From Candidatus Pyrohabitans jungbluthii (GTDB lineage Archaea > Hydrothermarchaeota > Hydrothermarchaeia > Hydrothermarchaeales > BMS3B), in assembly GCA_002010065.2 (NCBI GenBank), contig MTMD02000006.1:1-64000 (forward strand): a stretch of 64,000 nt of DNA, read 5' to 3'. Both the position numbers and the translations under genes were made by a program. Position 1 is the stretch's first letter, and each line of letters starts with the position of its first letter. Below, in pieces: positions 36,304-64,000 of the stretch. A model generated the notes under the pieces. It ran no database searches. It worked only from the letters and a program-made list of their open reading frames with translations, and was not told the DNA's origin.

Positions 36304-36322
36304 GGGCCACGGCCGAGATTTG
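36304..36322 (-). other. Provirus attachment site: duplicated tRNA 3' end (His-type)
   Basis: Minus strand CAAATCTCGGCCGTGGCCC = end of T-loop, T-stem, acceptor strand CCGTGGC and C73 discriminator; no tRNA 5' half; located at host/virus boundary. Confidence 0.75.
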
Positions 36323-36465
36323 GCAGCATGTGCATCGTCAGCGTCCTTTCCAAGAGTGCAAACATTTGCGCAACAGGACACTTCACTTTTTCGCCGCTCT
36401 CGGGTTAGGTCTTTTTGTGTGGAATACTCCATATATCCTACCTTTGGACACTTGGGGGAATCGAG

Positions 36466-36822
36466 ATGCTTGCGAAGTTTGTTGATCGGGAAGGACATGA
36501 GCGCTGGGTGGATGTGCGCATCAAAGATTGCGTGGAAGTCAAAGAAGGGCAGCGAAAGGTAGTCTTCATCCACGAGCTGAAGTCTGCCACCGTCGAAGAA
36601 GTCGCAAACCCTGCAAAGCTGGAAGGTTGGCTCAGCATTGCCAAGCTCGAACTTGATGCCACTCTGTCGCGTGAGGGAAAGGCAAACTGGACCAGCATGG
36701 CTTACGAGCTGAAGTGGACGCTCGGGCTGAAAAGCAAAGAAGAGGCTGAGGACATTCTCAGGCAGCTCTGCGAAGTCACCGGGGAGTACATCGTGCGCGA
36801 TGGCTGGATCGTCAGGGTGTGA
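36466..36822 (+). CDS. Viral hypothetical protein (possible C-terminal wHTH)
   Basis: GGGGG RBS; clean ORF next to att. Confidence 0.6.
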   Translation: MLAKFVDREGHERWVDVRIKDCVEVKEGQRKVVFIHELKSATVEEVANPAKLEGWLSIAKLELDATLSREGKANWTSMAYELKWTLGLKSKEEAEDILRQLCEVTGEYIVRDGWIVRV

Positions 36823-36833
36823 GCTTATTTTTT

Positions 36834-37391
36834 CTACCTCCAACTTATTATTACTCCATCGTCTGCGCTATGACCCAACAACTCCCCGTAGCTCTTCAGC
36901 CTCGCCTCAAATGTTACCATGGCACCTTTGGGAATCTCCAGAGCCTTTTCCTTCTGGTCAGATCTAAGTTTAACACTCATATCTGACGTGAAAGTGTCTG
37001 GCTTGCATCTCAATGACATCATTAGAGACTCTGACACATCCACTAGTTCGCAGGTCCACCTGACATACTTCCCTTTATATTTCTCAAATTCTACCTTCTT
37101 CTGGGCATCCGTCAGAGAGCCTTCCATTCCAAAGAGGGAATCAAACTCATAGAAGCTTATATCTATGTACTCTTTTGGAGGAGGCGTTGCTGCAGATCCT
37201 GTTGATGTAGAGCCTTCTTCGCCGCCTCCGAACAATGCTGCTACGAACATCAAGCCAAAGAGCACTATGAAAGCTTTCGTCACAATGTGCCTTCTCCCCC
37301 ACCAGCTGCGGTTATCATGCCCGCAGTGAGGGCACTCTTTGGCTTTTGAAGATATCTCCGCTCCACATTCTTTGCATTTTACCAGCCCCAA
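36834..37391 (-). CDS. Zn-ribbon + TM + extracellular OB-fold protein
   Basis: CKECGAEISSKAKECPHCG, single TM, KYKGKYVRW...VTFEARL OB-like domain. Confidence 0.75.
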   Translation of the reverse strand: MGLVKCKECGAEISSKAKECPHCGHDNRSWWGRRHIVTKAFIVLFGLMFVAALFGGGEEGSTSTGSAATPPPKEYIDISFYEFDSLFGMEGSLTDAQKKVEFEKYKGKYVRWTCELVDVSESLMMSLRCKPDTFTSDMSVKLRSDQKEKALEIPKGAMVTFEARLKSYGELLGHSADDGVIISWR

Positions 37392-37434
37392 TTTCTCAAA
37401 CCCCCTATATTCTCTAATAAATTCCTTAATTTTA

Positions 37435-37617
37435 TTACTCCCTCACCCCCTCTTTTTTGTACGTGGTTTTTAGTTCCTGTTCCTTAAGCCACTCGATTAG
37501 AGCGGTCCGGACGACATCTGCTTTAGTAGGATACTTCCCTTTATCAACCAACTTCTGGACTTTTTCGTATGTCTCTTCTGAAACACCAATCTTTATGAAA
37601 TATGTTTTCTGCGGCAT
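37435..37617 (-). CDS. Ribbon-helix-helix (CopG-like) repressor candidate
   Basis: IKIGVSEETYEKVQKLVDKGKYPTKADVVRTAL. Confidence 0.85.
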   Translation of the reverse strand: MPQKTYFIKIGVSEETYEKVQKLVDKGKYPTKADVVRTALIEWLKEQELKTTYKKEGVRE

Positions 37618-37634
37618 TTTTTCACGCCCTTATT

Positions 37635-37856
37635 AGTAACTAAAAGGTTACTTATAAAGTTAACGTCACGGTTCCCGATTTTCTAAATATTTTTGCACAG
37701 TCCCGGAATCTCAAAAGTTAGAATTTCAAAGCCGCGAAATCTGGTTCGAATTATTCCCCATATACTACACTTTTTTGGAACTTAGTTAGAACTTCAAACC
37801 GTAAAGTATTTATACCATTCCCGTATTAGGAACTTATCAGGAACTTTATTAGAACT
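37635..37856. promoter_or_regulatory. Divergent switch promoter region with operators
   Basis: AGTAAC-N6-GTTACT at 37635-37652; RGAACT repeats at 37777, 37788, 37829, 37840, 37851 flanking TTTATA box at about 37809. Confidence 0.75.
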
Positions 37857-37871
37857 ACTGGAGGAGAAAGT

Positions 37872-38093
37872 ATGGCAGAGCGTGAGATTGTGAAACTGAC
37901 TCTCTCGAAGGGCTTTGCAAAAGCCGTTGACGCGCTCGTAGAAAAAGGGGACTATAAGTCCCGGCCGGACTTCTTCGAGAAGGCTGGGCATCTCCTTCTT
38001 GAGAAGCATGGCATGCTCGTACAGTCCGCTCAACCACCGCGCCACATCAGCGACGCCACCGGCAACAGGGTGCAGAAAGTGGAGGTGGACTGA
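37872..38093 (+). CDS. Ribbon-helix-helix protein (Cro-like role)
   Basis: VKLTLSKGFAKAVDALVEKGDYKSRPDFFEKA; first gene of rightward operon. Confidence 0.8.
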   Translation: MAEREIVKLTLSKGFAKAVDALVEKGDYKSRPDFFEKAGHLLLEKHGMLVQSAQPPRHISDATGNRVQKVEVD

Positions 38094-38096: not shown

Positions 38097-38357
38097 ATGC
38101 CTGAGATTCTTGCCATCATCGATACAGGGGAAGAAATAGTTCCGGGACTCACACTGAAGCGTTGGGAGCACCTCTGCTACCTCACCAAGGACGAGATTTT
38201 CGAGCTCGGGAGGCGCGGTCTACGCGAGCTTTTCAAGAAGCTCGGCAAGCAGCATCCAGAGGCGAAGTGGCTGAAGCTGAAGATGCGCGGCATTCGAAGA
38301 CACTATGGTTTGCACGAGTTCGACCCCTGGCTGAATCCATACCGGAGGGACAGGTGA
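38097..38357 (+). CDS. Viral hypothetical protein
   Basis: GGAGGTGG RBS; tightly packed operon. Confidence 0.65.
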   Translation: MPEILAIIDTGEEIVPGLTLKRWEHLCYLTKDEIFELGRRGLRELFKKLGKQHPEAKWLKLKMRGIRRHYGLHEFDPWLNPYRRDR

Positions 38358-38487
38358 TGGCGCTGGAGCAGGTTCTCAGGCTCAGACTGAGCAGGGAGCA
38401 GGTCCAGAAGCTCACCAAGGGGCACAAGATCACCGAGATTCTGCCGAGCGGCGAGGTGCTGGAGATCACCGCGGAGGTGAGTGACAA

Positions 38488-38808
38488 TTGAACGAGGACG
38501 AGCTCTTCCGCAGGGTTGTGCGCGTGTTTTTGGAGAAGCATGGTGACGAGGTCAGGCGCGCGGTGAAGGGTGACTTGCTCCTCGAGGCAGGACTCAAGCG
38601 TCTCGAAGAAATCGCGGGCATCACTCACCATGGCAGCCCTAAAGTCTCTTTTTCTGGAGCTTTGCAGGCTCGGGCTGCCCATCCCCCCAAACCCCTCCCC
38701 ACTACCTCCGTGGGCGCTGGAGGTACCCCCCACGCCGACTTCGCTGTACGAGGCTTCTCGCCCTCTGGCGCCCACTCTTTTTTCTGCCAGGAGGTGAGTG
38801 AGCATTGA
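38488..38808 (+). CDS. Viral hypothetical protein
   Basis: TTG start after GGAGGTGA; Pro-rich C-terminus. Confidence 0.5.
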   Translation: MNEDELFRRVVRVFLEKHGDEVRRAVKGDLLLEAGLKRLEEIAGITHHGSPKVSFSGALQARAAHPPKPLPTTSVGAGGTPHADFAVRGFSPSGAHSFFCQEVSEH

Positions 38809-39500
38809 ACCTCAATGCTGCTGATGCGGGTGTTGGGGCGGGCTCCATCTCCCACATCGCCTCCTCTATACCCAGCGCCCCCACCCCCTCTCTCAAATTT
38901 AAAACGTGGAAAGACACCACTTGGTATTATACCCAGGTCCCTGACTGGCTTCTTGAGGATGCGCATAAGTACGCCCTGGAGAGGCGGGAGTTCAAGCGTT
39001 CCAGCACCGACAACGTGCCGATATTTCAGACCGATCCCGTTGAGAATGAAAAGGTAGGTATCATAGGCGAGCTCGTCTGCGGCTTCCTCTTCGCCAGGAA
39101 CATCAACATCAGGCTAATCGATAGGCCTACTGATATGATTGATGGTGGCGACGGCGGTGCAGACTTCTATCTGCAGCGCTCCGACGACGAAGACAACCTA
39201 GCTAAGATAGACGTGAAAACAGTAGCCAGGACAGTTGTCCCAAAGCCTCACTACAGCTGCGTGGTTGCACACAAGCAGCTCATCAGAAAGAGCGGCGAAG
39301 AAATCCTGGTTTTTGTCAGCTACACCAAGCCCTCGAGGCTCGCCTTTGTTCTCGGCTGGCTTACTGTTGCAGAATTCAATGAGAAAGCACGGTACAGGAG
39401 GAAGGGCTACCGCTACAACAGCTTTGTAGCTCCAACAGCGTTCCACGAGGTCTACGTGAGGGAGCTCAGGCCAATTTCTGAACTCCTCGAGTGGAGGTGA
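38805..39500 (+). CDS. PD-(D/E)XK-like nuclease-fold protein
   Basis: GIIGE helix, DGGADF, IDVKT motif spacing. Confidence 0.6.
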   Translation: MNLNAADAGVGAGSISHIASSIPSAPTPSLKFKTWKDTTWYYTQVPDWLLEDAHKYALERREFKRSSTDNVPIFQTDPVENEKVGIIGELVCGFLFARNINIRLIDRPTDMIDGGDGGADFYLQRSDDEDNLAKIDVKTVARTVVPKPHYSCVVAHKQLIRKSGEEILVFVSYTKPSRLAFVLGWLTVAEFNEKARYRRKGYRYNSFVAPTAFHEVYVRELRPISELLEWR

Positions 39501-39769
39501 GAAGGTTGGAGGAAGAAGCAAAGTATGATCTGCAGCTGGCTTTTCTGGAGAAGTTCAATCAGGAGCTCAGAGCAGCCGCCCAAATCGTAGCAGACAGGAT
39601 GCCCACGCATGGCATCCCTGAAAAAGACTTCGAATATCACACTGACTGGGCTAGGTTGAAAATCAAGCGGGCGAGGACGCTTCAGACCAGGAACAAGGAG
39701 AAAATCATCGACGACCTGCGCGATGCGATCAATTACTGCGTCTTTGCGATTCTCTCCCTGGAGGAATGA
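39491..39769 (+). CDS. DUF1599/Nmad1-like (nucleotide-modification-associated) protein
   Basis: KIKRA...EKIIDDLRDAINYCVFAI matches DUF1599 C-terminal signature. Confidence 0.6.
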   Translation: MEVRRLEEEAKYDLQLAFLEKFNQELRAAAQIVADRMPTHGIPEKDFEYHTDWARLKIKRARTLQTRNKEKIIDDLRDAINYCVFAILSLEE

Positions 39770-39772
39770 GGG

Positions 39773-40213
39773 ATGGAGGAAAAGACCCAATACGACCCAT
39801 CATCCCGTAGCTTCGACGACGCCCCTTCAACTGCAGCGCTTGAGGCGGAGATAGTTCCGCAATTGCTCAGCCTGCCCAAGCAGATTCGGGAGAAAATGCT
39901 CGATATCCTGCTCATGCAAAGCAGGATCAACGAGACAGAGTTCGAACTCAAACAATGGGAAGCGGAGCAAATCCAGGACATTGCCACAGCGGTTGACGAG
40001 AATGGCAGAAAGCTCTTCAGCAACGAGAAGCTGCGGCAGGCAGAACTCGAGCGCAGGAAGGCTGAGGATCAGAGGTACAAGCAGCTCAGCGAAGCGCTGC
40101 AGGAGTATAAAGAGCAACAAGAGAAGGACAGGATAGAGCTCGAGTACCTGCGCTATCAATTCCGTGCTTTAGAAATCTATACGCGATTTCTTGAAGCGAC
40201 GAGGGGGCTGTAG
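39773..40213 (+). CDS. Viral coiled-coil protein
   Basis: FSNEKLRQAEL, heptad-rich E/K/Q composition. Confidence 0.65.
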   Translation: MEEKTQYDPSSRSFDDAPSTAALEAEIVPQLLSLPKQIREKMLDILLMQSRINETEFELKQWEAEQIQDIATAVDENGRKLFSNEKLRQAELERRKAEDQRYKQLSEALQEYKEQQEKDRIELEYLRYQFRALEIYTRFLEATRGL

Positions 40214-40217
40214 CCAG

Positions 40218-40334
40218 ATGAAGCTGGAGAAAGACCCGTTTGCTGGAATACCAGTCACAGAAGACGAAATTTGCGAATATTTCATGAAAAAATATTATCC
40301 ACTTGAAAAGAAAGCCATGGAGGGAAAGAAATGA
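40218..40334 (+). CDS. Small viral protein (38 aa)
   Basis: MKLEKDPFAGIPVTEDEICEYFMKKYYPLEKKAMEGKK; ATGA overlap with next gene. Confidence 0.5.
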   Translation: MKLEKDPFAGIPVTEDEICEYFMKKYYPLEKKAMEGKK

Positions 40335-40774
40335 GTCTGGATGGTTGGATACAGAAGGCTGAAGAGGAAGCGGAAAAGCTCCCCGCGAGCGGCGGGGAGT
40401 TCTGGAAGCCAGGCGATGGAATGTACAAGATCTTGCTCGGAGAGCCGAAGTTCAGAGATCAGGAGTTCAACAAGAAGGACGGCACGGTGGAAAAGAGGCG
40501 CATGGCAGATTTTCCAATCCTACTCGTGGAGGATGGGCAAGTTGCCGGAAGAGCGACATGGAGCATGAGGGTGAGCAGACATGAGAAGTCAGTATACCAG
40601 AAGGTGCTCAGAGCTGCGAAAGAAGCTGTGAAAGCGGGGGATATCACAGAAGTGGACGGTGCAAAGCTCCTCGCTTTGATTGTAGAGGTGCGAGGCGAAG
40701 GGCTGAGTAGAGAGTGGTCTGTCTCAAACGTCAGCGAGTACAAGAAGAAGCTGGAGCAAGTCGCAAGCCTCTGA
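40331..40774 (+). CDS. Putative viral ssDNA-binding protein (OB fold)
   Basis: FWKPGDG N-terminal motif and VRGEGLSREWSV C-terminal motif typical of phage SSBs. Confidence 0.55.
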   Translation: MSLDGWIQKAEEEAEKLPASGGEFWKPGDGMYKILLGEPKFRDQEFNKKDGTVEKRRMADFPILLVEDGQVAGRATWSMRVSRHEKSVYQKVLRAAKEAVKAGDITEVDGAKLLALIVEVRGEGLSREWSVSNVSEYKKKLEQVASL

Positions 40775-40778
40775 GGCG

Positions 40779-41360
40779 GTGGCAATGTGCGACTACCCGG
40801 AATATGCGGCTCATAGTCTCCCCGGGCCTCTCCAGGAAGCTCACAAGCGCAGCATGCCCTTCCTCACTAAGTATGACGAGATGTTGAAAAAACACCTAGA
40901 CAACCTGCCAGAAGAGATAAAAGCCAAGGTCCTTGAACGCCTCTCCGAGCCACAACCCCGCAAAGGCATGCTCCTCGGTGGGCTGCACCTGGAGGACCTG
41001 CCGCGGGTAGTCAAAGAGATTGCTGACTTGATGGATGCTAGCATATACGCACCACATCAGCCCGATGTGAGGAGCGTGACCGTCAAGTTTGGCTGGGAGT
41101 GGCCGGAAGGCGATGACCACCACGTTTTCCTAGAAATCGTCGATGTGGACCGCGGGGAGAGTAGGAACACCGTAACACTGAGCAGAGTATTCTGCGAAAA
41201 CTGCGGTGGGGTCTTCTACATCCCGGTGCCTCCTGCATGCTTCCCGGGAAACCCTCCAGCATACTCTTGCCCATATTGTCTCGGCGAGTCGCTCCGCATC
41301 CTCGAGAGGGTAACAACGGTGGTACAGGCGGAAGTGCCAGCACCTCGTGGGCGGAGGTGA
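40779..41360 (+). CDS. Viral Zn-finger protein
   Basis: CENCG...CPYC near C-terminus. Confidence 0.6.
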   Translation: MAMCDYPEYAAHSLPGPLQEAHKRSMPFLTKYDEMLKKHLDNLPEEIKAKVLERLSEPQPRKGMLLGGLHLEDLPRVVKEIADLMDASIYAPHQPDVRSVTVKFGWEWPEGDDHHVFLEIVDVDRGESRNTVTLSRVFCENCGGVFYIPVPPACFPGNPPAYSCPYCLGESLRILERVTTVVQAEVPAPRGRR

Positions 41361-41366
41361 ACCACA

Positions 41367-42347
41367 ATGCCAGAGCTGTGGTTGAAAATCGAGGAAGGTG
41401 CAGTCACTGAGGTCAAGCTAGATGGGATATCCGCAGCTCTAAAGAAGCCTGTAGAGTCCACAGAGATTCCTTTCTTTCTTGAGGCAGTAGGGTTTCTCCA
41501 ACGTTGTGGTTTCGGATTCAAGGTTCCAGAGAACTCGAAAGCTGAGGTCCAGGATCCTGGGGCTGAGGTTCCTACCACACCGAAAGAGAGACACTCTGGT
41601 GAAGACGAAAAAAAGCCAAGCGCTTTCTTCTGTATCCCTCACGACGAAAGGGAGAAAAAGATTCTCACAATTCTCGAGGGTGGAGAAAAGCTCGGTGCAA
41701 AAGAAATTGCAGAGAAGCTTGGTGGCATCAGCTCACGTGGATTGTCAAAAATACTGCGAAGCATGTATGAGAAAGGGCTCATATTGCGGGAAATAGAGGA
41801 GGAGAAGGGAAGGCCCTCGCGCTATATCTACTTCATACCAACGGAGCTCAGGGAAGAAAACCTGCGTGAAGCAATAATAGCTGTCTTCAAAGAGAGCGGA
41901 CGCAATCGTCTCAAAGCAAGGCAGATCGCAAAACGGCTTGAAAAGAGAGGCATCAGCATTTCCATCCCCAAGCTTAGAGTCGTACTGAAAGACCTCGCAG
42001 ACGAGGGCATACTGGATGTAGAGAAGCAGAGCCGCCCTCGCTACTACTCCTCAACAACGCAGCAGCCGGAGAAAGTTGCCTCAGAGTCACCATGGGCTGC
42101 TCCTCCAAAGGTCGAAGAGGAGAAGGTAGAGCTTTCCAGCGAGGAGGAGACAACCCTACAGGAGATTTACGATAAAGGGCAGGTATGGGACGACGAGATC
42201 AGCAGGGAAACGAGAAAGCTCTACAGGCAGCTCGAGGACAAAGGACTACTCAGAGCTTCGGTTACCACCTGGGATGAGGGGAAGAAAAAGTTCCGCCGCG
42301 CATTCTGGACCCTCACAGAGAAAGGCATTGCGGCTCTTGGAGGGTGA
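41367..42347 (+). CDS. Multi-winged-helix DNA-binding protein
   Basis: Three wHTH-like units (AKEIAEKL...LRSMYEKGLI; ARQIAKRL...LKDLADEGIL; LEDKGLL...WTLTEKG). Confidence 0.75.
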   Translation: MPELWLKIEEGAVTEVKLDGISAALKKPVESTEIPFFLEAVGFLQRCGFGFKVPENSKAEVQDPGAEVPTTPKERHSGEDEKKPSAFFCIPHDEREKKILTILEGGEKLGAKEIAEKLGGISSRGLSKILRSMYEKGLILREIEEEKGRPSRYIYFIPTELREENLREAIIAVFKESGRNRLKARQIAKRLEKRGISISIPKLRVVLKDLADEGILDVEKQSRPRYYSSTTQQPEKVASESPWAAPPKVEEEKVELSSEEETTLQEIYDKGQVWDDEISRETRKLYRQLEDKGLLRASVTTWDEGKKKFRRAFWTLTEKGIAALGG

Positions 42348-42350
42348 TAG

Positions 42351-42530
42351 ATGCCCGGCTGGAGAGTTTTCAGGGAGAATATCCTGTGTGCCAGAGAGCT
42401 CTTCTTCTGCCCGGAATGCGGCAGCCACGACATCTACAAAAGAACCAGGAAGGGTGGGTACTACTGCAACCTCCACAAGGGGATCTTCGAAAAACCTCTC
42501 ATATTCAGGAGGGTGGAAAACAGTGGTTAA
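42351..42530 (+). CDS. Small Zn-ribbon protein (59 aa)
   Basis: MPGWRVFRENILCARELFFCPECGSHDIYKRTRKGGYYCNLHKG. Confidence 0.6.
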   Translation: MPGWRVFRENILCARELFFCPECGSHDIYKRTRKGGYYCNLHKGIFEKPLIFRRVENSG

Positions 42531-42684
42531 ACGCAGACGGCTCAGCAAGCAGGAGGAAAGGATACGCAAACTGCAGAGGCTCACCAGGCGCGACCTGGTC
42601 AAAAAGGAGCGCCCCATCTGCAACGTGTGCTTCCGCCCTGTAGGCTCATGCGATTACTGCAGGAAGGAAATGCAGAAGGCATGA
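42523..42684 (+). CDS. Small basic Cys4 protein
   Basis: GTG after GGAGGG; MVKRRRLSKQ...CNVCFRPVGSCDYC. Confidence 0.55.
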   Translation: MVKRRRLSKQEERIRKLQRLTRRDLVKKERPICNVCFRPVGSCDYCRKEMQKA

Positions 42685-42911
42685 GAAGGAGGTGAAAACC
42701 TGAAGATCAGGCTAACTATCGCGGACCTTTTCACCATCCTCGATGCTGCGCATGCCCTAGGGAAGAAAGGAGAAACCGCAAAGGTAGGAGAGCTGAGATG
42801 CCATAAGCATGCGCTGATGCAACGCCATGGCTTAGATGAGAGCAGCGTGGCGAAACTGAAGGAAGCACTGAGGAGAGGTAAGTACAGCATCATAGGAGGT
42901 GATGCCGCAAA

Positions 42912-43168
42912 GGGTAATACCCAATTTTTTGCAACAAAAAGGGGTAATACCCGAGGTATTACAAAAGCAAATTTTTCGCGTTGATTTATAAATAAACTCA
43001 AGAAAAAAATCAGGAGGAAGGAAAGAAAAATGATATGGATTAGTTTGGAGAAGGAGAAAAGAAAAAAAGCGTTTCTGGGACGAAATGTATACACGCTGAT
43101 GTATTCCCTCCGCTACAAAAAAAGCCTTTGGGTAATACCCGGGGTATTACCCCTGAGGGGTATTACCC
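42912..43168. repeat. Array of GGGTA(A/T)TACCC palindromic repeats around an A-rich spacer; putative viral origin
   Basis: Copies at 42912, 42942, (42955 partial), 43130, 43142, 43158. Confidence 0.8.
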
Positions 43169-43196
43169 TTACAATGTTCATTGGAGTGGTGCGATC

Positions 43197-43583
43197 ATGC
43201 CTTCGAAGGACAGCATTGTGGTCACTGCAAGGTTGCGAAAAGACGAGTATGAAGCTCTGCAAGAGGTCATGAAGATGCACAGACTCAGCGTTGCAGGCGT
43301 GCTCAGGTTCGCAGTGGCGAAGCTGAAGAAGGACAAGCCAAGCCCGCGCCTGAAGCTGCCAGAGCACCCAAAGCAGTGCAAGCTGTACAAAGCAATGCTT
43401 GACTGGATGCGGAAAAGCGGCACGCCAAAGTTACCGCCGTCAGAGCTCAGAAAGATCCAGTACTTCACAGGCATCATGACTAAACAGACCCTGGAGCGCT
43501 ACCTCGAGGCGCTAGAAGTACAGGGCTTCGTGAAGCGCAATCGCGGATATGTTACGGTGCTGAAGAAGTGGGAGGAGGATTAG
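43197..43583 (+). CDS. RHH + wHTH DNA-binding protein
   Basis: VVTARLRKDEYEAL...SVAGVLRFAV; TLERYLEALEVQGFVKR. Confidence 0.7.
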   Translation: MPSKDSIVVTARLRKDEYEALQEVMKMHRLSVAGVLRFAVAKLKKDKPSPRLKLPEHPKQCKLYKAMLDWMRKSGTPKLPPSELRKIQYFTGIMTKQTLERYLEALEVQGFVKRNRGYVTVLKKWEED

Positions 43584-43584
43584 G

Positions 43585-43791
43585 ATGCTATATGACCTGT
43601 ATGAGATCATTCTGGAGAATCCGGGCATAACGAGGAAGGAGATACTCAAGGAAGTTGACCTGCATCCGACGAACGTATCAAAGTACATCTCGCGCCTTGT
43701 GAAGAAAGGCAAAGTTGTTAGAGTCAGGGAGCGGGTGCCAGGAAACGTCACGCGCTACTATCCAGTTGAGATAGCTGGAAAGAGGAGATAA
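43585..43791 (+). CDS. MarR-like wHTH protein
   Basis: ENPGITRKEIL...VSKYISRLVKKGKV. Confidence 0.8.
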   Translation: MLYDLYEIILENPGITRKEILKEVDLHPTNVSKYISRLVKKGKVVRVRERVPGNVTRYYPVEIAGKRR

Positions 43792-54895: not shown

Positions 54896-54896
54896 G

Positions 54897-56591: not shown

Positions 56592-56600
56592 GGAGGGGAA

Positions 56601-56921: not shown

Positions 56922-56922
56922 C

Positions 56923-57291
56923 TTGGCAGCCACTATCGACGACGTGAGGGCACAGATTGGCGACACCGACCCAGACAACTACATCTTCGGCGACCCTGAG
57001 ATCCAGAGCGCTCTGGACGAAGCTCAAGCAATCATAGAGGCGGAAGGGGGAAATGTTAGCAGTATACTGGGCAAGAGGGCGCAGAAGCTGCTCGCCGCCG
57101 CCTTCCTGGTTGACATGAAGACCGGGAACATAAAAGAGCGCAACGTCAAAACAATCCGCGAGGGCGATGCCTCGCTGGACTTTGAAGACCTCTCTGCGAA
57201 GGCTAAGGAGTGGCGCGCCGAAGCTGAGAGGCTGATTGACAAGCTCAGACCTCTGCCCTTTGGTGTGACCAACGATTTCTTCAGTGAGTGA
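56923..57291 (+). CDS. Head-tail connector (adaptor)
   Basis: TIDDVRAQIGDTD...FGDPEI...IREGDASL pattern. Confidence 0.7.
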   Translation: MAATIDDVRAQIGDTDPDNYIFGDPEIQSALDEAQAIIEAEGGNVSSILGKRAQKLLAAAFLVDMKTGNIKERNVKTIREGDASLDFEDLSAKAKEWRAEAERLIDKLRPLPFGVTNDFFSE

Positions 57292-57653
57292 AAATGTTCT
57301 CGGCTTTAGACTGGCCCTATAAAATTGAGCTGGTAAGAATCACAGAGGGCTACACCGACCAGAGCACTGGTGACTATATCCCTCCCCAGGAGAGCGTGGT
57401 GGAGATAAAGGGACACATCAGCGATGTTACGGTCAAAGACCTGCAGCGTGCACCGGAAGGGCTCTATGAGCTGGGCGACAGAAGGCTCTACGTAGCTAAG
57501 AGCTACGGCATCGCCGAGGGAGATATAATCAAAATCACAGAGGCGGACGGCTCAGTGAGCGAGTGGAAAGTTGTGCGCAGGGAGAGAAGCTACGGCTTGC
57601 TTGAGAGGTACGCAGCCTCGAGAGAGGCGTTTCTGCTCAGGCGGAGACAATGA
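57288..57653 (+). CDS. Head closure protein
   Basis: GYTDQSTGDY, LQRAPEG, GDII...W beta-rich; position. Confidence 0.65.
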   Translation: MKMFSALDWPYKIELVRITEGYTDQSTGDYIPPQESVVEIKGHISDVTVKDLQRAPEGLYELGDRRLYVAKSYGIAEGDIIKITEADGSVSEWKVVRRERSYGLLERYAASREAFLLRRRQ

Positions 57654-58159
57654 GCAAAGTAGAAGACAAGAACAACATCCCCAAGCTTGTGGCTGATTTT
57701 GAGAAGATCCTCGATCGCGTCGCAGCGAAGATTGCGATGTACCTCGAGCAGAAGATCCTTGACAAGATGGAGTCTGGCGACGCCTCCTGGCCGGAGCTGC
57801 ATCCCTTCACCGTCTCAAGGAAAGGCAGCACAAAGGCGTGGATCGACACCGGAGAGCTGAGGAATCAGATCACGCACCGCATCACGGGCAAAAGCATGAG
57901 CAGGACCATAAAGGTCGGCATCTTCCAGAGCAAGAAGGCTTTCATAGCGCTAGTCCTCGAGGAAGGGGCAACGATAAGAGTGAGTGAGAGGATGCGGAAG
58001 TTCCTCCATGCCCAGGGGCTACACCTCAAGCAAAGTACGTCAGAACTCCACATCCCACCGAGACCTCTTTTCACGCTGGTTTTCGACATGGAGGAAGAGA
58101 AAATTCTTAAAATAGCGCGGCAGGCTCTCGAGGAAGAGCTGAATCGCTACACCCTCTGA
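57650..58159 (+). CDS. Tail completion/neck protein (Mu gpG-like)
   Basis: WPELHPFT..RK, IDTGELRNQI, EEG, IPPRP motifs. Confidence 0.75.
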   Translation: MSKVEDKNNIPKLVADFEKILDRVAAKIAMYLEQKILDKMESGDASWPELHPFTVSRKGSTKAWIDTGELRNQITHRITGKSMSRTIKVGIFQSKKAFIALVLEEGATIRVSERMRKFLHAQGLHLKQSTSELHIPPRPLFTLVFDMEEEKILKIARQALEEELNRYTL

Positions 58160-58172
58160 CTTTGCTTTTTAT
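58156..58172 (+). promoter_or_regulatory. Viral late promoter motif copy 5
   Basis: CTGACTTTGCTTTTTAT, 30 nt TATA-to-ATG (58196). Confidence 0.7.
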
Positions 58173-58195
58173 GTTCTGTGCTGTGAGTGCTTATC

Positions 58196-58738
58196 ATGCT
58201 CCCTTCGAGTCTAAAGAAAGAGATCTTCAAAAGCCTGCCCAAGCAGGTAACAATAGGCAACGACACCCTCAGCATATACGTTGACTACGCTGACAGAGTG
58301 AACGTCTCAGAGAAGCTTCGCAGCTATCCCGTGGTGCTCACTTTGCACTACTTCGGTGACAGGAGGAGCGATGTGGAGAGCCCCCTCAATGACATCCTGG
58401 AGATAACCAGCGACGGCGTGGATGTGATCTACACCAAGGGGGAGAGGGAGCGGATCACGCTGCGCATCAACATCCACGCAAAGGACCACAGGGGCGCAGA
58501 GTTCCACCACAGGAGCGATGTTGTAGACGCAGTGGTTGACGAGCTGCTTCTGTGGTACCTCAAGCTAAACATCCCCGGTATAGCCACGCGGGGGAGAAGC
58601 GAAGTTGCTGCACTTGACTTCCTCGCAGGCGACGGAATAGCGAGGCGGAGGATAGACTTCTACCTCGCCTATACGCTGAGCTACCAGGAGACGGTCACCA
58701 CCATTGAGACCATTAACTACGAGGTCCAGCAGGGCTGA
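58196..58738 (+). CDS. Tail terminator-like protein
   Basis: Position before sheath; alpha/beta with RRRIDFYL. Confidence 0.55.
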   Translation: MLPSSLKKEIFKSLPKQVTIGNDTLSIYVDYADRVNVSEKLRSYPVVLTLHYFGDRRSDVESPLNDILEITSDGVDVIYTKGERERITLRINIHAKDHRGAEFHHRSDVVDAVVDELLLWYLKLNIPGIATRGRSEVAALDFLAGDGIARRRIDFYLAYTLSYQETVTTIETINYEVQQG

Positions 58739-58742
58739 TTTT

Positions 58743-58759
58743 CTGACTTTCCTTTTTAA
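58743..58759 (+). promoter_or_regulatory. Viral late promoter motif copy 6 (sheath)
   Basis: CTGACTTTCCTTTTTAA. Confidence 0.75.
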
Positions 58760-58809
58760 ACCTCTGCATTCAGCTTAAGCTTAAAAGCCGAAACTGGAGG
58801 AAGTAAGAG

Positions 58810-59889
58810 ATGCCGACGTCGGATAGCGCAATCCAAATCAACGTAGCTGATGCAACTTCGGCTTCTAAGGCCGAAACCTACGGCGAGGTAATTGTGATCG
58901 GCGAGGACAGCGACAATCTCGCGGACTTCAACACTGTATACACCTACTATAGCCAGAGCGAGGTTGAGCAGAAGTTCGGCGCTACTTCACCGATATCGCA
59001 GGCTACATCGAAGATTTTCGCCCAGGGCGTGGACCACGTGAAGGTGGTTAACGCCCTAAAGGACGACGGAGCAGGCGGCTCCGTTGCGGATTATAACACG
59101 GTGCTCAACTCCCTGGTGAGCGAGCAAGTTGACTACGACATAATAGTCCCGACGATAGACGCCAGCGATGCCAACATGCCAACGCTTGTGAGCCACGCAG
59201 GCAGCGAGAAGAAGGTGCTCATCATACCGGACATAGGGGATAAAGCTACCGTGGAAGCCAACATCGGGGCTCTCACGGCAAACGAGTACTGCTTTGCTAT
59301 TGCTCACGATGATGCAACGCTTGCACCAGGAGAACTTGCGGGCGCTGCCGCTGGCGTGCTCGGCGTGCTCCGCCCTTGGGTGCCTCCGGAGTGGCATGAG
59401 GTGCAGGGCATAAGTGCTGCGAGCTACGCCCCCAGCGATGTCGATGCCCTCGAGGGCAGCAACATCAACACCGTCATAACTGTGGCGCAGCGCAGCGTGA
59501 TAAGCGGAGCCAAGAGCCTCACGGGCAGCTTTATAGACATCCCGCGCACTAAGATCTACCTCGCCAAGGAGATCAAAAACGCCCTGGTGAACCTGAAGAT
59601 CCGCCTCGCCAACATGGGGCGCAAGATACCTTACTCGCCGGCGGGGCTGGACATGATCAAGGCGACAATCGAGGGGGTCTGCAGAGCTGCTCAGACTCTG
59701 GGCGCGCTGAGAGCTGATTACGTGGACGGGAAAGGCAACCTCGTGAAGGGCTTCCTTGTGAGCGTGCCAAGCTATGACTCAATACCAGACAGCGACAAGA
59801 GCAACCGCGTGCTCAACAACGTTTCCGTGACTGCATACCTGAGCGGCAGCATCAGCAAGATCACGCTTGACCTGGTCATAACGCTATGA
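58810..59889 (+). CDS. Contractile tail sheath protein (DUF3383-like)
   Basis: FIDI...KIPYSPAG...SVP...DKSNRVL...YLSGSI C-terminal sheath signature. Confidence 0.82.
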   Translation: MPTSDSAIQINVADATSASKAETYGEVIVIGEDSDNLADFNTVYTYYSQSEVEQKFGATSPISQATSKIFAQGVDHVKVVNALKDDGAGGSVADYNTVLNSLVSEQVDYDIIVPTIDASDANMPTLVSHAGSEKKVLIIPDIGDKATVEANIGALTANEYCFAIAHDDATLAPGELAGAAAGVLGVLRPWVPPEWHEVQGISAASYAPSDVDALEGSNINTVITVAQRSVISGAKSLTGSFIDIPRTKIYLAKEIKNALVNLKIRLANMGRKIPYSPAGLDMIKATIEGVCRAAQTLGALRADYVDGKGNLVKGFLVSVPSYDSIPDSDKSNRVLNNVSVTAYLSGSISKITLDLVITL

Positions 59890-59899
59890 GGTGATTGAA

Positions 59900-60304
59900 G
59901 TGGCGCTTGTGGAGTATAGCGTTAAGGATGTAACCGTCTTTATCGACGGCGTTGAAGTGGAAGACATCGCAGAACTCACCATCACGCCCAAAGGAGAGGA
60001 CAACGTAACGCCAGTGAAGGACTGGAGCAATAGAACAATAGGCTGGAACGTGAAGGATGACACCGACGCAGAGGGCACCATCGGCTTAAAGGCGCAGAGC
60101 AAGACCAACCAGCTGCTCATGGACATCGTCAAAGCCAAGCGCGGCGTGCAGGTCGTTGTGAAGAGCAACAACAAAGAGGCAACGGGCTTCTCGAAGATGA
60201 GCATCGACGACTGCCACTTCTCCTGGCCGGAGTTCAAGCCCGAGGCAGAGGAGCCCACGTGGAGCTGGAAGTTCATAGGCACAAACTTCGATATCGAGTA
60301 CTGA
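59900..60304 (+). CDS. Tail tube protein
   Basis: YSVKDVTVFIDG, GTIGLKAQS, WKF; follows sheath. Confidence 0.75.
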   Translation: MALVEYSVKDVTVFIDGVEVEDIAELTITPKGEDNVTPVKDWSNRTIGWNVKDDTDAEGTIGLKAQSKTNQLLMDIVKAKRGVQVVVKSNNKEATGFSKMSIDDCHFSWPEFKPEAEEPTWSWKFIGTNFDIEY

Positions 60305-60314
60305 GGTGGTGTAG

Positions 60315-60626
60315 ATGGCAAAGAAGGGCATTGATTATTCTAAGATATATGTGGCAGACGATCCTATAACAATCGAAGTGAACGGAGTGGAATTCAAGCT
60401 AAAGGAACTGAGTTCCGGAGAGTACTATGATATCCTTGAATCCTGCAGCCGTGGAAGTGATTTTGACAGGAAAAAGTACAGCCATAAGCTCGTCCAAGCT
60501 GCTGTGATAGAGCCAGATATTAACGCAGCAAAATTAAAACCTGGTGTGTTAGCAGTATTGGTCAACGAAGTCGAAAATTCTCTGGGTCTCTCTGAGGAGG
60601 CATTGCGTCACATTAAAAAAAAGTAG
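60315..60626 (+). CDS. Tail assembly chaperone (gpG-like)
   Basis: FKLKELS...AVIEP...LKPG; ends in slippery A AAA AAG before TAG. Confidence 0.75.
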   Translation: MAKKGIDYSKIYVADDPITIEVNGVEFKLKELSSGEYYDILESCSRGSDFDRKKYSHKLVQAAVIEPDINAAKLKPGVLAVLVNEVENSLGLSEEALRHIKKK

Positions 60627-60805
60627 AATCTAAGTTTCATCTTTACTTTTTAGCTGAACAATTCGGCGACTTAGAATTGGAAAGGGTCAATAAGCTGCCC
60701 ATTCACCGTGTTTTAGAGTGGCTTGAATATTTCAAGCAGAAGCATGAAAAAGTTAAGGCAATTACTATTGATAGCTCAGAGGGACACACGTTCAGGTTTT
60801 CTTAG
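60623..60805 (+). CDS. -1 frameshift extension of tail chaperone (gpT-like)
   Basis: Open -1 frame with no ATG: VESKFHLYFLAEQFGDLELERVNKLPIHRVLEWLEYFKQKHEK... Confidence 0.75.
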   Translation, partial: VESKFHLYFLAEQFGDLELERVNKLPIHRVLEWLEYFKQKHEKVKAITIDSSEGHTFRFS

Positions 60806-61348
60806 CTATTCATTATTGTAAAATTGTGCTATTTTTTGTAAATGATATTCTGAAGGTTGTTTACATTCTGATTTGTCTTTCCAATTTTGAGAAATTTCAC
60901 GCCTACACACATCTTCCAAAATCAATTGAATTGCCTCGAATGCTGTCATACCTTCAGACATTATTATACGATCATCTTTCTTTAGGGTCCCATATTCCCC
61001 TCCTCTAGGTTCCCACTTGTAGGGTATGGTAGCCCCATTACCACACACTAAAACCATTGAAATACTTTCAAACATTTTTTCAGGTATATATTTTCTTGAT
61101 CGAGGCGATCTCCCCACTGGATGGAAGACTATTTCGAGTTTCGTATTGGTAAAAAATTTATTGACTATTTTATTTGATTCATAATCAAAAAACTCAAAGT
61201 TCTCAAGTACTATCTTTTTCTCGTCGTAAAAAAAACCTCTAATGGATAAATTCATATAGACTTCTTTCCATCGTGTTTCAATTTCGTTCCTTAATTTTTC
61301 AACTATCTTATCAATCTCTTTAATAACAAAACTTAAGTGTCTACTCAT
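60806..61348 (-). CDS. AT-rich moron protein, unknown function
   Basis: 180-aa ORF overlapping the upstream moron gene. Confidence 0.65.
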   Translation of the reverse strand: MSRHLSFVIKEIDKIVEKLRNEIETRWKEVYMNLSIRGFFYDEKKIVLENFEFFDYESNKIVNKFFTNTKLEIVFHPVGRSPRSRKYIPEKMFESISMVLVCGNGATIPYKWEPRGGEYGTLKKDDRIIMSEGMTAFEAIQLILEDVCRREISQNWKDKSECKQPSEYHLQKIAQFYNNE

Positions 61349-62096
61349 TAAACCTCCCCAATTCTACAGAATAGAAATATTCTACTAGTAACCCTGGACT
61401 CACATTTCTGTTTCTTCTCCAACTTGTAATAATTTTATTCTTAAGTCTATCTGTATTTGTTGAGGTAATCCTGGTTGGGGAGATAGGTAGATACCAACCA
61501 TTATTTATAGCAGTTTCTATAACTTTAGGAGCCTCCTCATAAAGCCAATCTATTGTTTTTATTACATAGTTTTTATCTCTTCTATGAATAAAGAACCTAT
61601 ATATCTTCTCCATAGCAAATACCCAATCAAAAATTTCGTCATATAATCCAGCAATTATTATCGACTTAAGTGTTGGGATTTTAGGCTTTATTTCTAATTC
61701 TGGAAAGAATCTTATAATGGAATCATCAATATATAATAAATGGGCAAATTTTATAACATACTCAAATCCATAAATATGAGCATAATCTTTGAATAAGTTT
61801 TCGTAATGCAATTTTGTAATATGGTCATACATGTTGTATTTAGATCCCATGGTCTTAACTGTGATCTCAATGTAATCAGAATATTTTATAATAAAAGGTT
61901 CCATCTCTTTTAACATTTTGTCTACTTTGTTTAAAGTCTCTTCTTCGAATATTTCAAGTTCATTGTATTTAAAGAATGGCAGTGCTTTCCATTCTCTAAT
62001 AAATTCCTCTTTACTGGGTCTGCCAAAAGATGGTCCAGAAGGGTGATACACACCAATTTTTGGATGATAAACAGAAACAACATTAACGGACGCCAT
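61341..62096 (-). CDS. AT-rich moron protein, unknown function
   Basis: 251-aa ORF with GGAGG RBS. Confidence 0.7.
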   Translation of the reverse strand: MASVNVVSVYHPKIGVYHPSGPSFGRPSKEEFIREWKALPFFKYNELEIFEEETLNKVDKMLKEMEPFIIKYSDYIEITVKTMGSKYNMYDHITKLHYENLFKDYAHIYGFEYVIKFAHLLYIDDSIIRFFPELEIKPKIPTLKSIIIAGLYDEIFDWVFAMEKIYRFFIHRRDKNYVIKTIDWLYEEAPKVIETAINNGWYLPISPTRITSTNTDRLKNKIITSWRRNRNVSPGLLVEYFYSVELGRFNE

Positions 62097-62343
62097 GTAT
62101 TAGCCTCCAACCTTACATCATTAATTACCTCACCTTTTTGCGCCCACCCAACTATATCATATACCTATATCTCTATCATCTATCATAACTTATACCCATA
62201 TCACCGTATATGTTTATTGTATATTGTATATACCTATACTTTCGTATAGTTACACCAACTCTTTGATATATAAAATTTATTGTTCGGTTGTCTGCAAAGC
62301 CTTGGCAATCACGTTGATGTTGCAGTCCTGGGCATCGGGGTTA

Positions 62344-62967
62344 TTACTGATATGCTTTATCCACATCTTCCTCTAGCTCTTTCAGTCTCTTTTTTAATCT
62401 CTCATATTCCTCCTTATCAATACTCCTAGCTTTTTTTAATTCTTGTATTTCTTGATATATCTCATCCAATTTCGCCTCAATATTCGCCAACCTGTCTGTG
62501 CGATAACTTGTATAATAAATTGGTAGTTTCTCATATTGTAGCTGTAATTTTTCTATTTTGGGTAAGACTTTGCTTAAATTCTGATGGACTTCTGCGAATT
62601 GCTGAGCGATTTTCAAAGTTTTTAGAACAGGAATTTGAAGCTCTCTATATAGAGATATTGTTTTAGAGATTGACGAAATAGCTGCCATAGTATTCGCCAA
62701 ACTTTTTTCTAATCTATCAAGCTCAGGGTATTTTTCATGATATTCACTCAAAATTTGTTTTGCTTTTTCTTTTATTGAAATGTCATCTGATTTTGAGAGT
62801 TCCTTTGCTATGAAGTAAGCTTCAATCGGGAGTGTATCTAAATGTCGCTTTATCAAGTCTAAGCATTCCAAATGTGTATCCTCATCTTTTGCTTTCTCCT
62901 TGATTTCTTCCATAATTTTTTGAGCATCTTTTGAAGAGACCAACTTTTCTGACATATTTTTCACCAC
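62344..62967 (-). CDS. Helical/coiled-coil moron protein
   Basis: HEAT-like LSKSDDISIKEKAKQIL segment and C-terminal coiled coil. Confidence 0.65.
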   Translation of the reverse strand: MVKNMSEKLVSSKDAQKIMEEIKEKAKDEDTHLECLDLIKRHLDTLPIEAYFIAKELSKSDDISIKEKAKQILSEYHEKYPELDRLEKSLANTMAAISSISKTISLYRELQIPVLKTLKIAQQFAEVHQNLSKVLPKIEKLQLQYEKLPIYYTSYRTDRLANIEAKLDEIYQEIQELKKARSIDKEEYERLKKRLKELEEDVDKAYQ

Positions 62968-63188
62968 ACTTTAAGTATAAGAGCCACAGTTAGAATGATT
63001 ATAAAAACTACACTTCCCGCAATCCCTGAACTTTTGCTAATTTTAAATAAACCCGCAAAATATACTCCAATTAATCCGTATGCCACCGCCCACAGTATTA
63101 GAGTATTTGATGTAAGTGCATCCACTATTGTGATTATTACCAACCATAGCAGAATAAAACCAACTGTGTATCCAGTAGCTACCCCCAT
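62961..63188 (-). CDS. Small three-TM moron protein
   Basis: 75 aa, hydrophobic; overlaps next gene. Confidence 0.6.
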   Translation of the reverse strand: MGVATGYTVGFILLWLVIITIVDALTSNTLILWAVAYGLIGVYFAGLFKISKSSGIAGSVVFIIILTVALILKVW

Positions 63189-63227
63189 GACTTTATTTTA
63201 TAAATAGGGCCTATAAAAAAGTTTTCT

Positions 63228-64000
63228 ATGCCTTCAGTAAGAGACCTCTTTCTTAGGATCGGACTTCATGACACCGCATCTGGGAAGATGTTGAAAATAA
63301 TGAAAAGTTCTGATGCAGTGCATAAACAATTCCAGAAAGTGGGTAGTAGCGCGGAAAAATTAGGCAAGCAAATGGGGAGTGTAGCTAAATTCTTTAGAGA
63401 AATGGATACAATTGAAAAAGACATTATTAGAGTATCTCAGCAACATAATAGGGCAGTCAAAAAGCTTGCCCAAGCTTATATAAATCTAAAATGGAAAGTT
63501 AAACAGTATAAAAGGGAGGTATTAGCACCAGAACTTAGAAAGGTAGGGCGGTTTGCAAGGGAACATGCGCAACAACTAAAAGCAATGGGAGTTGCAGCTA
63601 CCGCTACTATGAGTGGGCTACTCTGGAAGGCACAAACGTACGAGAAATCTTTAGCAACTCTGCGGGCGCTCACTGCTGATAATGCAGAAGAGTATGAATA
63701 TTATCTATCTTTGATTGAAAAAAATAAGGGAGGGCTTTTTTCGAAGTCTGATATCGCAGCAACTCTCGCCTATGCTAAGGCCAACCGTCTCACCAGAGAA
63801 GAACTTGAGACCCTTCTTCCCTATGCAAAATCTGCTGCAGCAATGTTTGGTGAGGACTTACAACTTGCCTTCATTGCCATGGTAAGGGCGATGAAATATG
63901 GAGAGGCGGAACTTGCAGAGAGAATCGGATTACAGCTAAGAGAGAACGCAGTCAACCACATCGCCCTTAAACTCTATGGCAAAAGGCTGTCACAACTTAA
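63228..64000 (+). CDS. Tape measure protein (N-terminal part)
   Basis: MPSVRDLFLRIGLHDTASGKM... Ala/Lys-rich helical open frame to window end; position after TAC. Confidence 0.8.
   Translation, partial: MPSVRDLFLRIGLHDTASGKMLKIMKSSDAVHKQFQKVGSSAEKLGKQMGSVAKFFREMDTIEKDIIRVSQQHNRAVKKLAQAYINLKWKVKQYKREVLAPELRKVGRFAREHAQQLKAMGVAATATMSGLLWKAQTYEKSLATLRALTADNAEEYEYYLSLIEKNKGGLFSKSDIAATLAYAKANRLTREELETLLPYAKSAAAMFGEDLQLAFIAMVRAMKYGEAELAERIGLQLRENAVNHIALKLYGKRLSQL

Follow-up and report, generated by a model that had tools for sequence, protein, structure and literature searches.

A probably complete temperate tailed virus integrated at the tRNA-His gene of Candidatus Pyrohabitans jungbluthii

Borders, empty sites and structural genes

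Contig C6 (MTMD02000006.1; 79,132 bases) of the Candidatus Pyrohabitans jungbluthii genome assembly (GCA_002010065.2; 1.99 Mb in 15 contigs, 99.95% complete by marker genes) carries a provirus of 38.8 kb at positions 36303-75086. The stretch analyzed, here referred to as the window, comprises bases 1 to 64,000 of this contig, and the element extends beyond its end. An earlier note, made from the letters of the window alone, had placed an apparently intact, temperate, myovirus-like provirus of an anaerobic archaeon at 36304..64000; its start falls on the left attachment site (attL), but the element reaches C6 75086. From left to right it includes a repressor-like gene pair near the left end, an early region, packaging, head and tail genes, fiber genes and an integrase. 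We consider it probable that a structurally complete, temperate member of the Caudoviricetes with a contractile tail was acquired recently and is integrated in a Hydrothermarchaeota chromosome. That it is a temperate provirus is borne out by the integrase, by a 20-bp attachment repeat in a tRNA-His gene and by an empty site in sister strains.

A repeat search across the two flanks returned an exact 20-bp direct repeat, AGGGCCACGGCCGAGATTTG, at 36303-36322 and 75067-75086; the runner-up was only 13 bp long. The insert measures 38,764 bp plus one additional copy of this 20-bp core. The core coincides with the 3' end of the tRNA-His gene, the only one of its kind among 46 tRNA genes detected in the assembly, so that insertion keeps tRNA-His whole. 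The integrase adjoins the tRNA gene, is nearest to archaeal XerA/XerC-like recombinases and would recombine the viral core with the tRNA-His core. To the right of the integrase lie host genes (thymidylate kinase, cytidylyltransferase, lumazine synthase and a HAMP/PAS sensor). The content of guanine plus cytosine (GC) is 49.6% in the provirus and 51.2% in the host. Integrases of the same family (expectation value [E] of ≤1e-10) are present in 16 of 38 Hydrothermarchaeota species genomes, at identities of no more than 48%. A transposable, Mu-like phage, with a DDE transposase, random insertion and a short target duplication, was considered and rejected: none of the 64 open reading frames (ORFs) scanned belongs to a transposase family, the sole related match being a helix-turn-helix (HTH) of transposase type, 48 amino acids (aa) long, and the insertion is site specific at the 20-bp tRNA core.

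Four public sequencing runs (X1, X4, X5 and X6) were compared over 27000-46000, at the left junction, by means of assembled contigs. In X1, the probable source run, one independent Logan contig spans 34946-46000 across the attL junction, and of the words that make up the junction stretch, 98-99% are present in two further runs (X2 and X3). In each of X4, X5 and X6, which belong to three studies, one of them in common with X1, a single contig matches the host flank up to 36322 and then continues with the sequence following attR, that is, the tRNA-His body; there is no depth, or almost none, over 36510-46000. The same host population therefore exists with its tRNA-His site empty, and the empty-site contigs fix the provirus borders to the base. 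The X4 contig differs by 17 letters over 31558-36322, and a neighboring flank contig of X5 by 19 letters in 6474. At position 36254, the empty-site strains carry a 3-base deletion in an A-run left of attL, which, with scattered single-base differences, marks lysogen and non-lysogens as distinct strains. For the uncultured Hydrothermarchaeota, the locus provides a host-linked virus genome with exact borders and a natural pair of lysogen and non-lysogen populations.

Because the genome was assembled from a metagenome, in 15 contigs, one might suspect that assembly or binning had joined a free virus to a host contig. We find this scarcely credible, given that the X1 contig runs over attL and X2 and X3 hold nearly all junction words, that the junction is a tRNA-core duplication, the signature of an integrase, and that the GC content matches that of the host.

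We scanned 44 ORFs of the window, and 20 further ORFs from the right part of the contig, against Pfam and PHROGs (Table 1). The structural genes from terminase to chaperone are all on the + strand, none of them with an internal stop, and the earlier description of an ordered, non-pseudogenized set from packaging to tape measure stands. The order is interrupted, in a way not mentioned before, by four opposite-strand ORFs at 60806-63188, a low-GC island. An HK97-type capsid protein, a portal and a large terminase (TerL) with both of its domains (ATPase and RNase H-like nuclease) place the element in the Caudoviricetes. Head-closure and neck functions lie within 56923-58159 (phrog_161, head closure, E = 5.6e-5; phrog_222, Neck1/tail completion, E = 5e-22).

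The protease-scaffold protein has no Pfam or PHROG match and, among solved structures, no sequence match beyond coiled coils. An AlphaFold2 (AF2) model built from 10 sequences (mean predicted local distance difference test [pLDDT] score of 61.8; 70-91 in blocks of the N-domain) was matched by Foldseek to the T4 gp21 protease (5jbl; E = 5e-5, template modeling [TM] score of 0.60 over 147 columns, probability 1.0). H90, S147 and H170 are invariant, and the C-terminal third is a single long coiled coil. The model thus suggests a maturation protease of the herpesvirus/T4 gp21 fold.

Sheath, gp25- and J-like wedge proteins and hub argue for a contractile tail, in keeping with the earlier label of myovirus-like. 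The chaperone ORF ends in eight A (60615-60622) followed by G and the stop, and the -1 frame is open for 60 codons to 60805. This combination of slippery run and open extension is that expected of a G/GT-type chaperone, which would use the usual -1 frameshift. The right half of the element, whose loss or decay would have spoken against an intact provirus, is present on the contig and open, not degraded, and the core genes of the element align for the greater part of their length to those of the relatives described below.

Table 1. Features of the provirus and its borders on contig C6 (positions up to 64,000 lie in the window).
Feature	Position	Strand	Basis
attL, left 20-bp repeat copy, displaced tRNA-His 3' end	36303..36322	.	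exact repeat; X4/X5/X6 contig matches stop after 36322
Zinc-ribbon protein with hydrophobic segment, 185 aa, first clear gene inside left border	36834..37391	-	PF13240, 27.4 bits; phrog_14275, E 5e-11
Ribbon-helix-helix (RHH) protein, 60 aa, candidate repressor	37435..37617	-	PF01402 RHH_1, 22.4 bits (cut-off 20.5)
Divergent intergenic region, 254 bp, candidate operators/promoters	37618..37871	.	inverted repeat, several GGAACTT/AGAACTT repeats
RHH-like protein, 73 aa, first gene of rightward early operon	37872..38093	+	weak PF17723 RHH_8, E 0.012; Shine-Dalgarno GGAGG upstream
Early genes, mostly without family	38097..43791	+	
DUF1599 protein	39491-39769	+	
326-aa protein, three winged-helix domains	41367-42347	+	
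Winged HTH (wHTH) regulator, 68 aa	43585-43791	+	
Superfamily 2 (SF2) helicase, XPB/Rad25 type, 511 aa	43915..45450	+	phrog_16, E 8e-30; PF16203; PF04851; NF045503
HTH_28 protein, 48 aa	45467-45613	+	HTH_28, E 4e-7
70-aa ORF	45653-45865	-	
Small ORFs (the last two without family)	46212-46745, 47465-47923, 47965-48177	+	
Cys-rich protein, 111 aa, kept in all close relatives	47040-47375	.	
Motif GACTTT-NN-TTTWTAW, seven window copies	48304, 50083, 53498, 54512, 58158, 58745, 63189	+	span 48304..63203
Motif GACTTT-NN-TTTWTAW, two copies beyond window	C6 64998, 66970	+	
Candidate small terminase, 143 aa, overlaps TerL start	48344..48775	+	by position
Large terminase, TerL	48750..50084	+	PF03237; PF17289; phrog_2, E 3e-47
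Mu-type portal	50132..51523	+	PF06074, E 2e-11
Mu F-like minor head protein	51524..52798	+	PF04233, E 8.5e-16
Prohead protease (N-terminal) fused to coiled-coil scaffold, 452 aa	53537..54895	+	
Putative nested in-frame scaffold ORF, 109 aa	54566..54895	+	Shine-Dalgarno 54551-54559; internal motif 54512-54526
Capsid cement/decoration protein	54897..55367	+	PF22758, E 1.3e-5, 25.8 bits, under cut-off 27
Major capsid protein, HK97 type	55369..56256	+	PF25209, 29.9 bits (cut-off 27); phrog_1650, E 1.2e-27
Six head-tail connector, neck and tail-completion genes	56304..58738	+	two families (see text); rest by position and conservation in relatives
Tail sheath	58810..59889	+	phrog_205, E 6e-37 over residues 5-358; PF11863, 43.2 bits
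Tail tube candidate, 137 aa	59891..60304	+	phrog_280 'virion structural protein', E 5e-9; between sheath and chaperone
XkdN-like tail assembly chaperone, 103 aa, stop at 60626	60315..60805 (including -1 frame)	+	PF08890/phrog_389
Low-GC island, four ORFs: 180 aa, 251 aa, 207-aa coiled coil, 75-aa membrane protein	60806..63188	-	
Tape measure, 582 aa (first 257 in window)	63228 to C6 64976	+	phrog_1272, E 1.9e-8; phrog_167, E 6e-7
Baseplate block	C6 65039-69183	+	PF21821; phrog_196, E 3.5e-41; PF10934/PF04965; PF04865, E 8e-33; phrog_1160, E 7e-37
Dit-like	C6 65039-65569	+	
Plug-like	C6 65553-65852	+	
Hub	C6 65845-66657	+	
Baseplate-region ORF	C6 66654-66971	+	
gp25-like	C6 67010-67375	+	
Baseplate J	C6 67376-68584	+	
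Mu gp48-like	C6 68581-69183	+	
Fiber genes: 183 aa, 258 aa, 683 aa (DUF2341), 107 aa (BppU_N)	C6 69193-72904	+	
103-aa ORF	C6 72896-73207	-	
Staphylococcal-type nuclease	C6 73302-73763	+	PF00565, E 3e-14
Tyrosine integrase, 402 aa	C6 73764-74972	-	PF00589, E 3.6e-13; phrog_1, E 4e-21; 4a8e, E 2e-12
attR	C6 75067-75086		overlaps 3' end of tRNA-His
tRNA-His(GTG)	C6 75068-75142	-	

Described viruses and uncultured relatives

We compared the provirus with a collection of 50,697 phage and archaeal-virus records (INPHARED, August 2025). TerL is closest to Thermus phages of the P23-45 group (31%), followed by Halorubrum virus Hardycor1 (28.6%) and HGTV-1 (25%); neither the capsid protein nor the portal has a match in the collection at E = 1e-5. 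The sheath is ~27% identical in its C-terminal half only, and baseplate J ~41% identical to proteins of haloarchaeal myoviruses and of two Bacillus phages. These myoviruses (HRTV, HSTV and HJTV) share archaeal hosts and contractile tails with the provirus, their J-like protein aligning over 94% of its length, but they have no capsid or portal match and genomes of ~75 kb. With Thermus phages P23-45 and P74-26 and with Hardycor1 (Graaviviridae), TerL alone is common (28-31% over 91% of its length), as it is with HGTV-1 (Halomagnusviridae; over 94%). In a quick maximum-likelihood TerL tree of 25 sequences, for which 20 of 120 listed matches were chosen and four references added, the provirus falls in a clade of 15 together with the uncultured and Archaeoglobi relatives described below (Shimodaira-Hasegawa-like approximate likelihood-ratio test [SH-aLRT] support of 97), and the four described viruses lie outside it on branches of 2.9-4.6 changes per site. 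No close clustering with a described virus was seen in these comparisons, and, with capsid and portal unmatched and TerL at ≤31%, the provirus belongs to none of the virus families in the collection. By these sequence distances it would stand at about family level from described viruses, in a phylum for which no described virus was found, and would add a lineage of about that rank to the archaeal tailed viruses.

Phage Mu has the Mu-type portal, Mu F and Mu gp48-like baseplate families in common with the provirus; unlike Mu, the provirus has no transposase, and it integrates at a tRNA gene by a tyrosine recombinase.

Relatives are found among uncultured archaeal viruses and the proviruses of Archaeoglobi. 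Capsid relatives form 31 clusters at 49-93% identity, and 11 loci were retrieved from IMG/VR, among them G041, which measures 39,127 bp and is classified there as a provirus. For TerL, the source records of relatives at 54-55% identity carry the names Geoglobus acetivorans, Archaeoglobus sulfaticallidus PM70-1 and Archaeoglobus spp.; that of another, at 49%, names a Methanospirareceae metagenome-assembled genome (MAG). G041 and two Archaeoglobales MAG contigs (L003 and L016) have the same gene order as the provirus from small terminase to baseplate, with capsid proteins 74-77%, TerL 52-55% and baseplate J 62% identical (31-77% over the G041 core as a whole), and the core genes align over most of their length. 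The candidate small terminase, which otherwise matches PHROG families of unknown function only, is 37-40% identical to the genes at the same place in G041, L016 and L007. The late motif, the nested scaffold start and the chaperone frameshift site (see below for the first two) are likewise shared, the G041 chaperone having an A7 run and an open -1 extension, similar by eye. G041 differs in its GC content (~40%), in a 5-kb extra block between connectors and neck and in having no island; it encodes an archaeal-type PCNA, and the early/lysogeny region of the provirus has no detectable similarity to it. The hosts of these uncultured relatives belong to a phylum other than that of the provirus host. 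The relationship connects the virus to proviruses in cultured Archaeoglobi (Geoglobus acetivorans and Archaeoglobus sulfaticallidus), organisms in which the late motif, the nested scaffold start and induction would be open to bench work.

Within the 38 Hydrothermarchaeota species genomes, a capsid profile found the provirus-type capsid gene in two. The second, G006, is of the same family as the host and a different genus, and its capsid gene (contig position 45757-46635) is 93% identical. There, a portal-to-connector block on contig C2 (~41.4-52.6 kb) is 87-97% identical at the protein level and has 50-55% GC against ~42% in its flanks; only the C-terminal 238 aa of the portal are left, the tail genes belong to another type (Phage_tube_2, PF18906, a siphovirus-type tube), and the provirus TerL as query found no TerL. 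The G006 element looks like a remnant with a swapped tail and a head module from a close relative of the provirus, a case that points to an exchange of head modules, inside the phylum, between elements with contractile tails and elements with non-contractile ones.

A contractile tail set in a chromosome, with no sign of replication beyond that of the host, could also belong to a domesticated element that serves the host as a tailocin or in the manner of a gene transfer agent. Such an element would be expected to be fixed and vertically conserved, whereas this one is absent from near-identical strains and, by the capsid profile, from 36 of the 37 other species genomes of the phylum, and it carries capsid, portal, terminase, integrase and attachment repeats; domestication is accordingly a highly improbable explanation.

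Two contigs of a MAG titled Bacteroides sp. (L004 and L017) hold further homologues: one encodes a capsid protein 51% identical, which one source names 'encapsulin,' and the other a TerL 45% identical. They could come either from a bacterial phage with a closely related head module or from a mis-binned contig.

Proviruses as such are not new to the phylum. Zhao et al. (2026; PMC13573593) count 770 archaeal proviruses from 12 phyla; for Hydrothermarchaeota, one of the phyla in which proviruses were few, they report 'exclusive lysogenic proviruses'; the main text of that survey does not describe the Hydrothermarchaeota elements, and the provirus may or may not be among those counted. Xu et al. 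(2024; PMC11705971) report 38 head-tailed proviruses from four other phyla. As presented in these two papers, proviruses were recognized by the logic that applies here (capsid gene, integrase, tRNA gene and direct repeat). Our literature search, which paired the phylum name with provirus, Caudoviricetes or prophage, found no individually described Hydrothermarchaeota virus, and none of the provirus papers found names Geoglobus acetivorans or Archaeoglobus sulfaticallidus; nor did our searches find an individual description of any of the other relatives. The earlier proposal of a new virus for this host lineage thus holds for a described and delimited virus, and has to yield on the presence of proviruses in the phylum, which the 2026 survey had already counted.

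Late motif, nested scaffold and low-GC island

A Shine-Dalgarno-like motif precedes 33 of 56 starts, as against 17% of 5000 random positions. Several late genes have no Shine-Dalgarno and share GACTTT, two bases and TTTWTAA upstream. With the last base relaxed (GACTTT-NN-TTTWTAW), nine copies were counted. At up to two mismatches, the window contains 11 matches where 2.8 ± 1.8 are expected, and none of 100 shuffles reaches 11; at up to one mismatch, the provirus contains eight sites, every one on the coding strand, versus seven on both strands of the other 14 contigs and none in the rest of C6. The promoter and ribosome-binding signals that had been read from the letters alone hold up statistically, in the Shine-Dalgarno counts as in the TATA-containing motif that recurs before late genes.

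In six of the nine copies, an ATG follows 23-26 nucleotides (nt) downstream (48344, 53537, 58196, 63228, 65039 and 67010), which is the archaeal TATA-to-start spacing expected for transcription beginning at the ATG and yielding a leaderless mRNA. At the other three (portal, sheath and nested scaffold), a start with a Shine-Dalgarno lies 34-50 nt downstream. The motif with the same spacing is on the coding strand in all eight relatives scanned (13 sites in G041, and also in G006, L003, L005, L007, L009, L010 and L012). Since it recurs in viruses whose proteins are only 31-77% alike, the motif is conserved across the virus group. Late genes would be transcribed from at least these nine copies, mostly as leaderless mRNAs.

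The protease-scaffold gene itself contains one of the copies. The nested ATG at 54566 is preceded by AAAGGAGGT, and its product would begin at the first long helix of the model (344-389). The internal motif encodes SDFALN, the sole near-invariant residues of a low-confidence linker; it is present in all seven scanned relatives' loci that cover the gene, and in the five of those seven that are included in alignment A2 an in-frame Met is aligned ~8 codons after it. We infer a nested scaffold gene with its own promoter, in which the internal copy would yield a separate 109-aa scaffold. Nested scaffolds are familiar from phage lambda (C/Nu3) and phage Mu (I/Z), where, as in the provirus, a protease gene contains the scaffold in frame. 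Those arise from internal translation starts, that of the provirus apparently by an internal promoter. If this is true, a nested scaffold is made via an internal promoter and a leaderless or short-leader mRNA, and it is the promoter that fixes SDFALN in an otherwise variable linker.

The island (2.4 kb, 32.6% GC) lies exactly between the end of the chaperone -1 extension (60805) and the tape measure motif (63189). Two divergent TATA-like boxes occupy the 39-bp spacer before the tape measure gene, and the island therefore fits between transcription units with a signal of its own; it would probably be expressed in the lysogen. Apart from coiled-coil noise, its proteins match nothing in Pfam, PHROGs, NCBIfam or PADLOC, and they have no relative in IMG/VR or in the other 37 genomes of the phylum. 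The 180-aa protein yields atlas scores of ≤0.76 only. The 251-aa protein has a confident predicted fold (pLDDT 86, predicted TM score [pTM] 0.82) with no Foldseek match at E = 0.001 and VIA-align Z scores of ≤5.7; its relatives comprise a single close one (79%) and 14 representatives at E ≤0.001, and a profile of the 14 divergent homologues is too variable for a scan of loci. On metagenome contig L043, the DNA of which is 92-94% identical over head, sheath and tube genes, the 180-aa and 251-aa genes (82% and 94%) stand at the same place and the other two island genes are absent; its chaperone is different, as is its tape measure (34%). G041 has only 747 bp at the island position. Our guess, made with low confidence, is that the 180-aa and 251-aa proteins are an accessory exclusion or defense pair expressed from the lysogen.

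Taken further, these observations would make GACTTT-TATA a dedicated late promoter across Hydrothermarchaeota and Archaeoglobi viruses, read by a virus factor, with the internal copy giving the nested scaffold by a new mechanism and the island pair a new prophage-borne exclusion or defense system. We put this forward tentatively, as a possibility that we think has the odds somewhat against it. One candidate for the virus-encoded late-promoter factor is the 111-aa Cys-rich protein, possibly a zinc-binding regulator or a structural protein. Its counterparts in the relatives, 46-57% identical, are placed between connectors and neck, within the structural module; in the provirus it stands upstream of the small terminase.

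Early region, integrity of the element and host

At the left end, two RHH genes diverge from a repeat-rich spacer that also contains a tandem repeat (37824-37856). The layout is that of a two-repressor switch, and the pair would form the lysogeny switch, with operator and repressor roles assigned from the sequence layout. The early operon would supply DNA-binding proteins and an XPB-like helicase, depending otherwise on host replication. The helicase, of which the N-terminal ~200 aa match no family, is the only recognizable replication or repair enzyme. The replication step named in the earlier note comes down to the XPB-like SF2 helicase and the winged-helix proteins, and the scans recognized no polymerase, primase or initiator family; 'replication module' is therefore too strong a label.

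Several points weigh against a complete and functional virus. Family scans with Pfam and PHROGs recognized no polymerase, primase, replication initiator or lysis gene, about half of the early genes are without a family, and the leftmost 500 bp hold only ambiguous overlapping ORFs. A rise in coverage over the provirus, which had been suggested as a check, is not seen: in X1, the contig with host and provirus has a depth of 641 and a host contig 623, although contig depth is a poor measure of extra viral copies. The assembled contigs at the left junction gave no sign of an excision product, of a circular junction or of virion DNA. The island might hamper tail assembly, the protease model is of middling confidence, and the promoter and nested-scaffold readings come from sequence conservation.

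Part of this evidence would be explained by a cryptic, defective provirus, recently integrated, with its genes still open and excision, replication or lysis lost. The absence of recognizable initiator, polymerase and lysis genes, the even coverage in the source run, a foreign island inside the tail operon and the plain remnant in G006, with its shortened portal and no TerL found, all agree with it. Yet the morphogenetic ORFs are all free of internal stops, and the frameshift site, the nine promoter-like motifs and the nested start are preserved; the island occupies precisely the gap separating two transcription units, and a second variant genome has its two core genes at the same place. Furthermore, archaeal viruses seldom have lysis and replication genes that can be recognized, so that little follows from their absence here. 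We regard a defective element as unlikely, and prefer to read the provirus as structurally complete and temperate.

Two more patches of low GC, 45467-46000 (42% per kb) and 47400-48300 (37% per kb), contain the 48-aa HTH_28 protein, the 70-aa minus-strand ORF and small ORFs that match no family; they, too, may be foreign insertions. No provirus gene has a paralogue elsewhere in the genome except the ORF at 53087-53479, which is 48% identical over 69 aa to contig C2 381327-381533. At E = 0.1, Rfam returned no RNA family in 36000-64000.

Host DNA makes up the left 36 kb of the window; besides genes of ordinary metabolism, it encodes archaeal RadA, an RPA-like protein and ATPases of the type IV pilus/archaellum type. 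A search of the genome did not find mcrA and found two genes for CdhC of the acetyl-CoA synthase complex, which fits a non-methanogenic anaerobe. The host is placed in Hydrothermarchaeota because G006, a record of that phylum, shares its GTDB family. With RadA and RPA in the window, these findings uphold the earlier call of an anaerobic archaeon.

A simple scan found a single small CRISPR (clustered regularly interspaced short palindromic repeats) array, on contig C15 (93977-94270), with five 30-nt repeats and four 36-nt spacers; none of the four spacers matches the provirus or the retrieved relatives beyond 12-13 nt. A degenerate copy of the repeat lies on contig C1. In the host part of the window, a cluster at 12068-20362 combines one T2SSF-like and two T2SSE-like genes with a 711-aa FG-GAP repeat protein. 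This cluster could encode a type IV pilus or a system for adhesion, which would make it a possible virus receptor.

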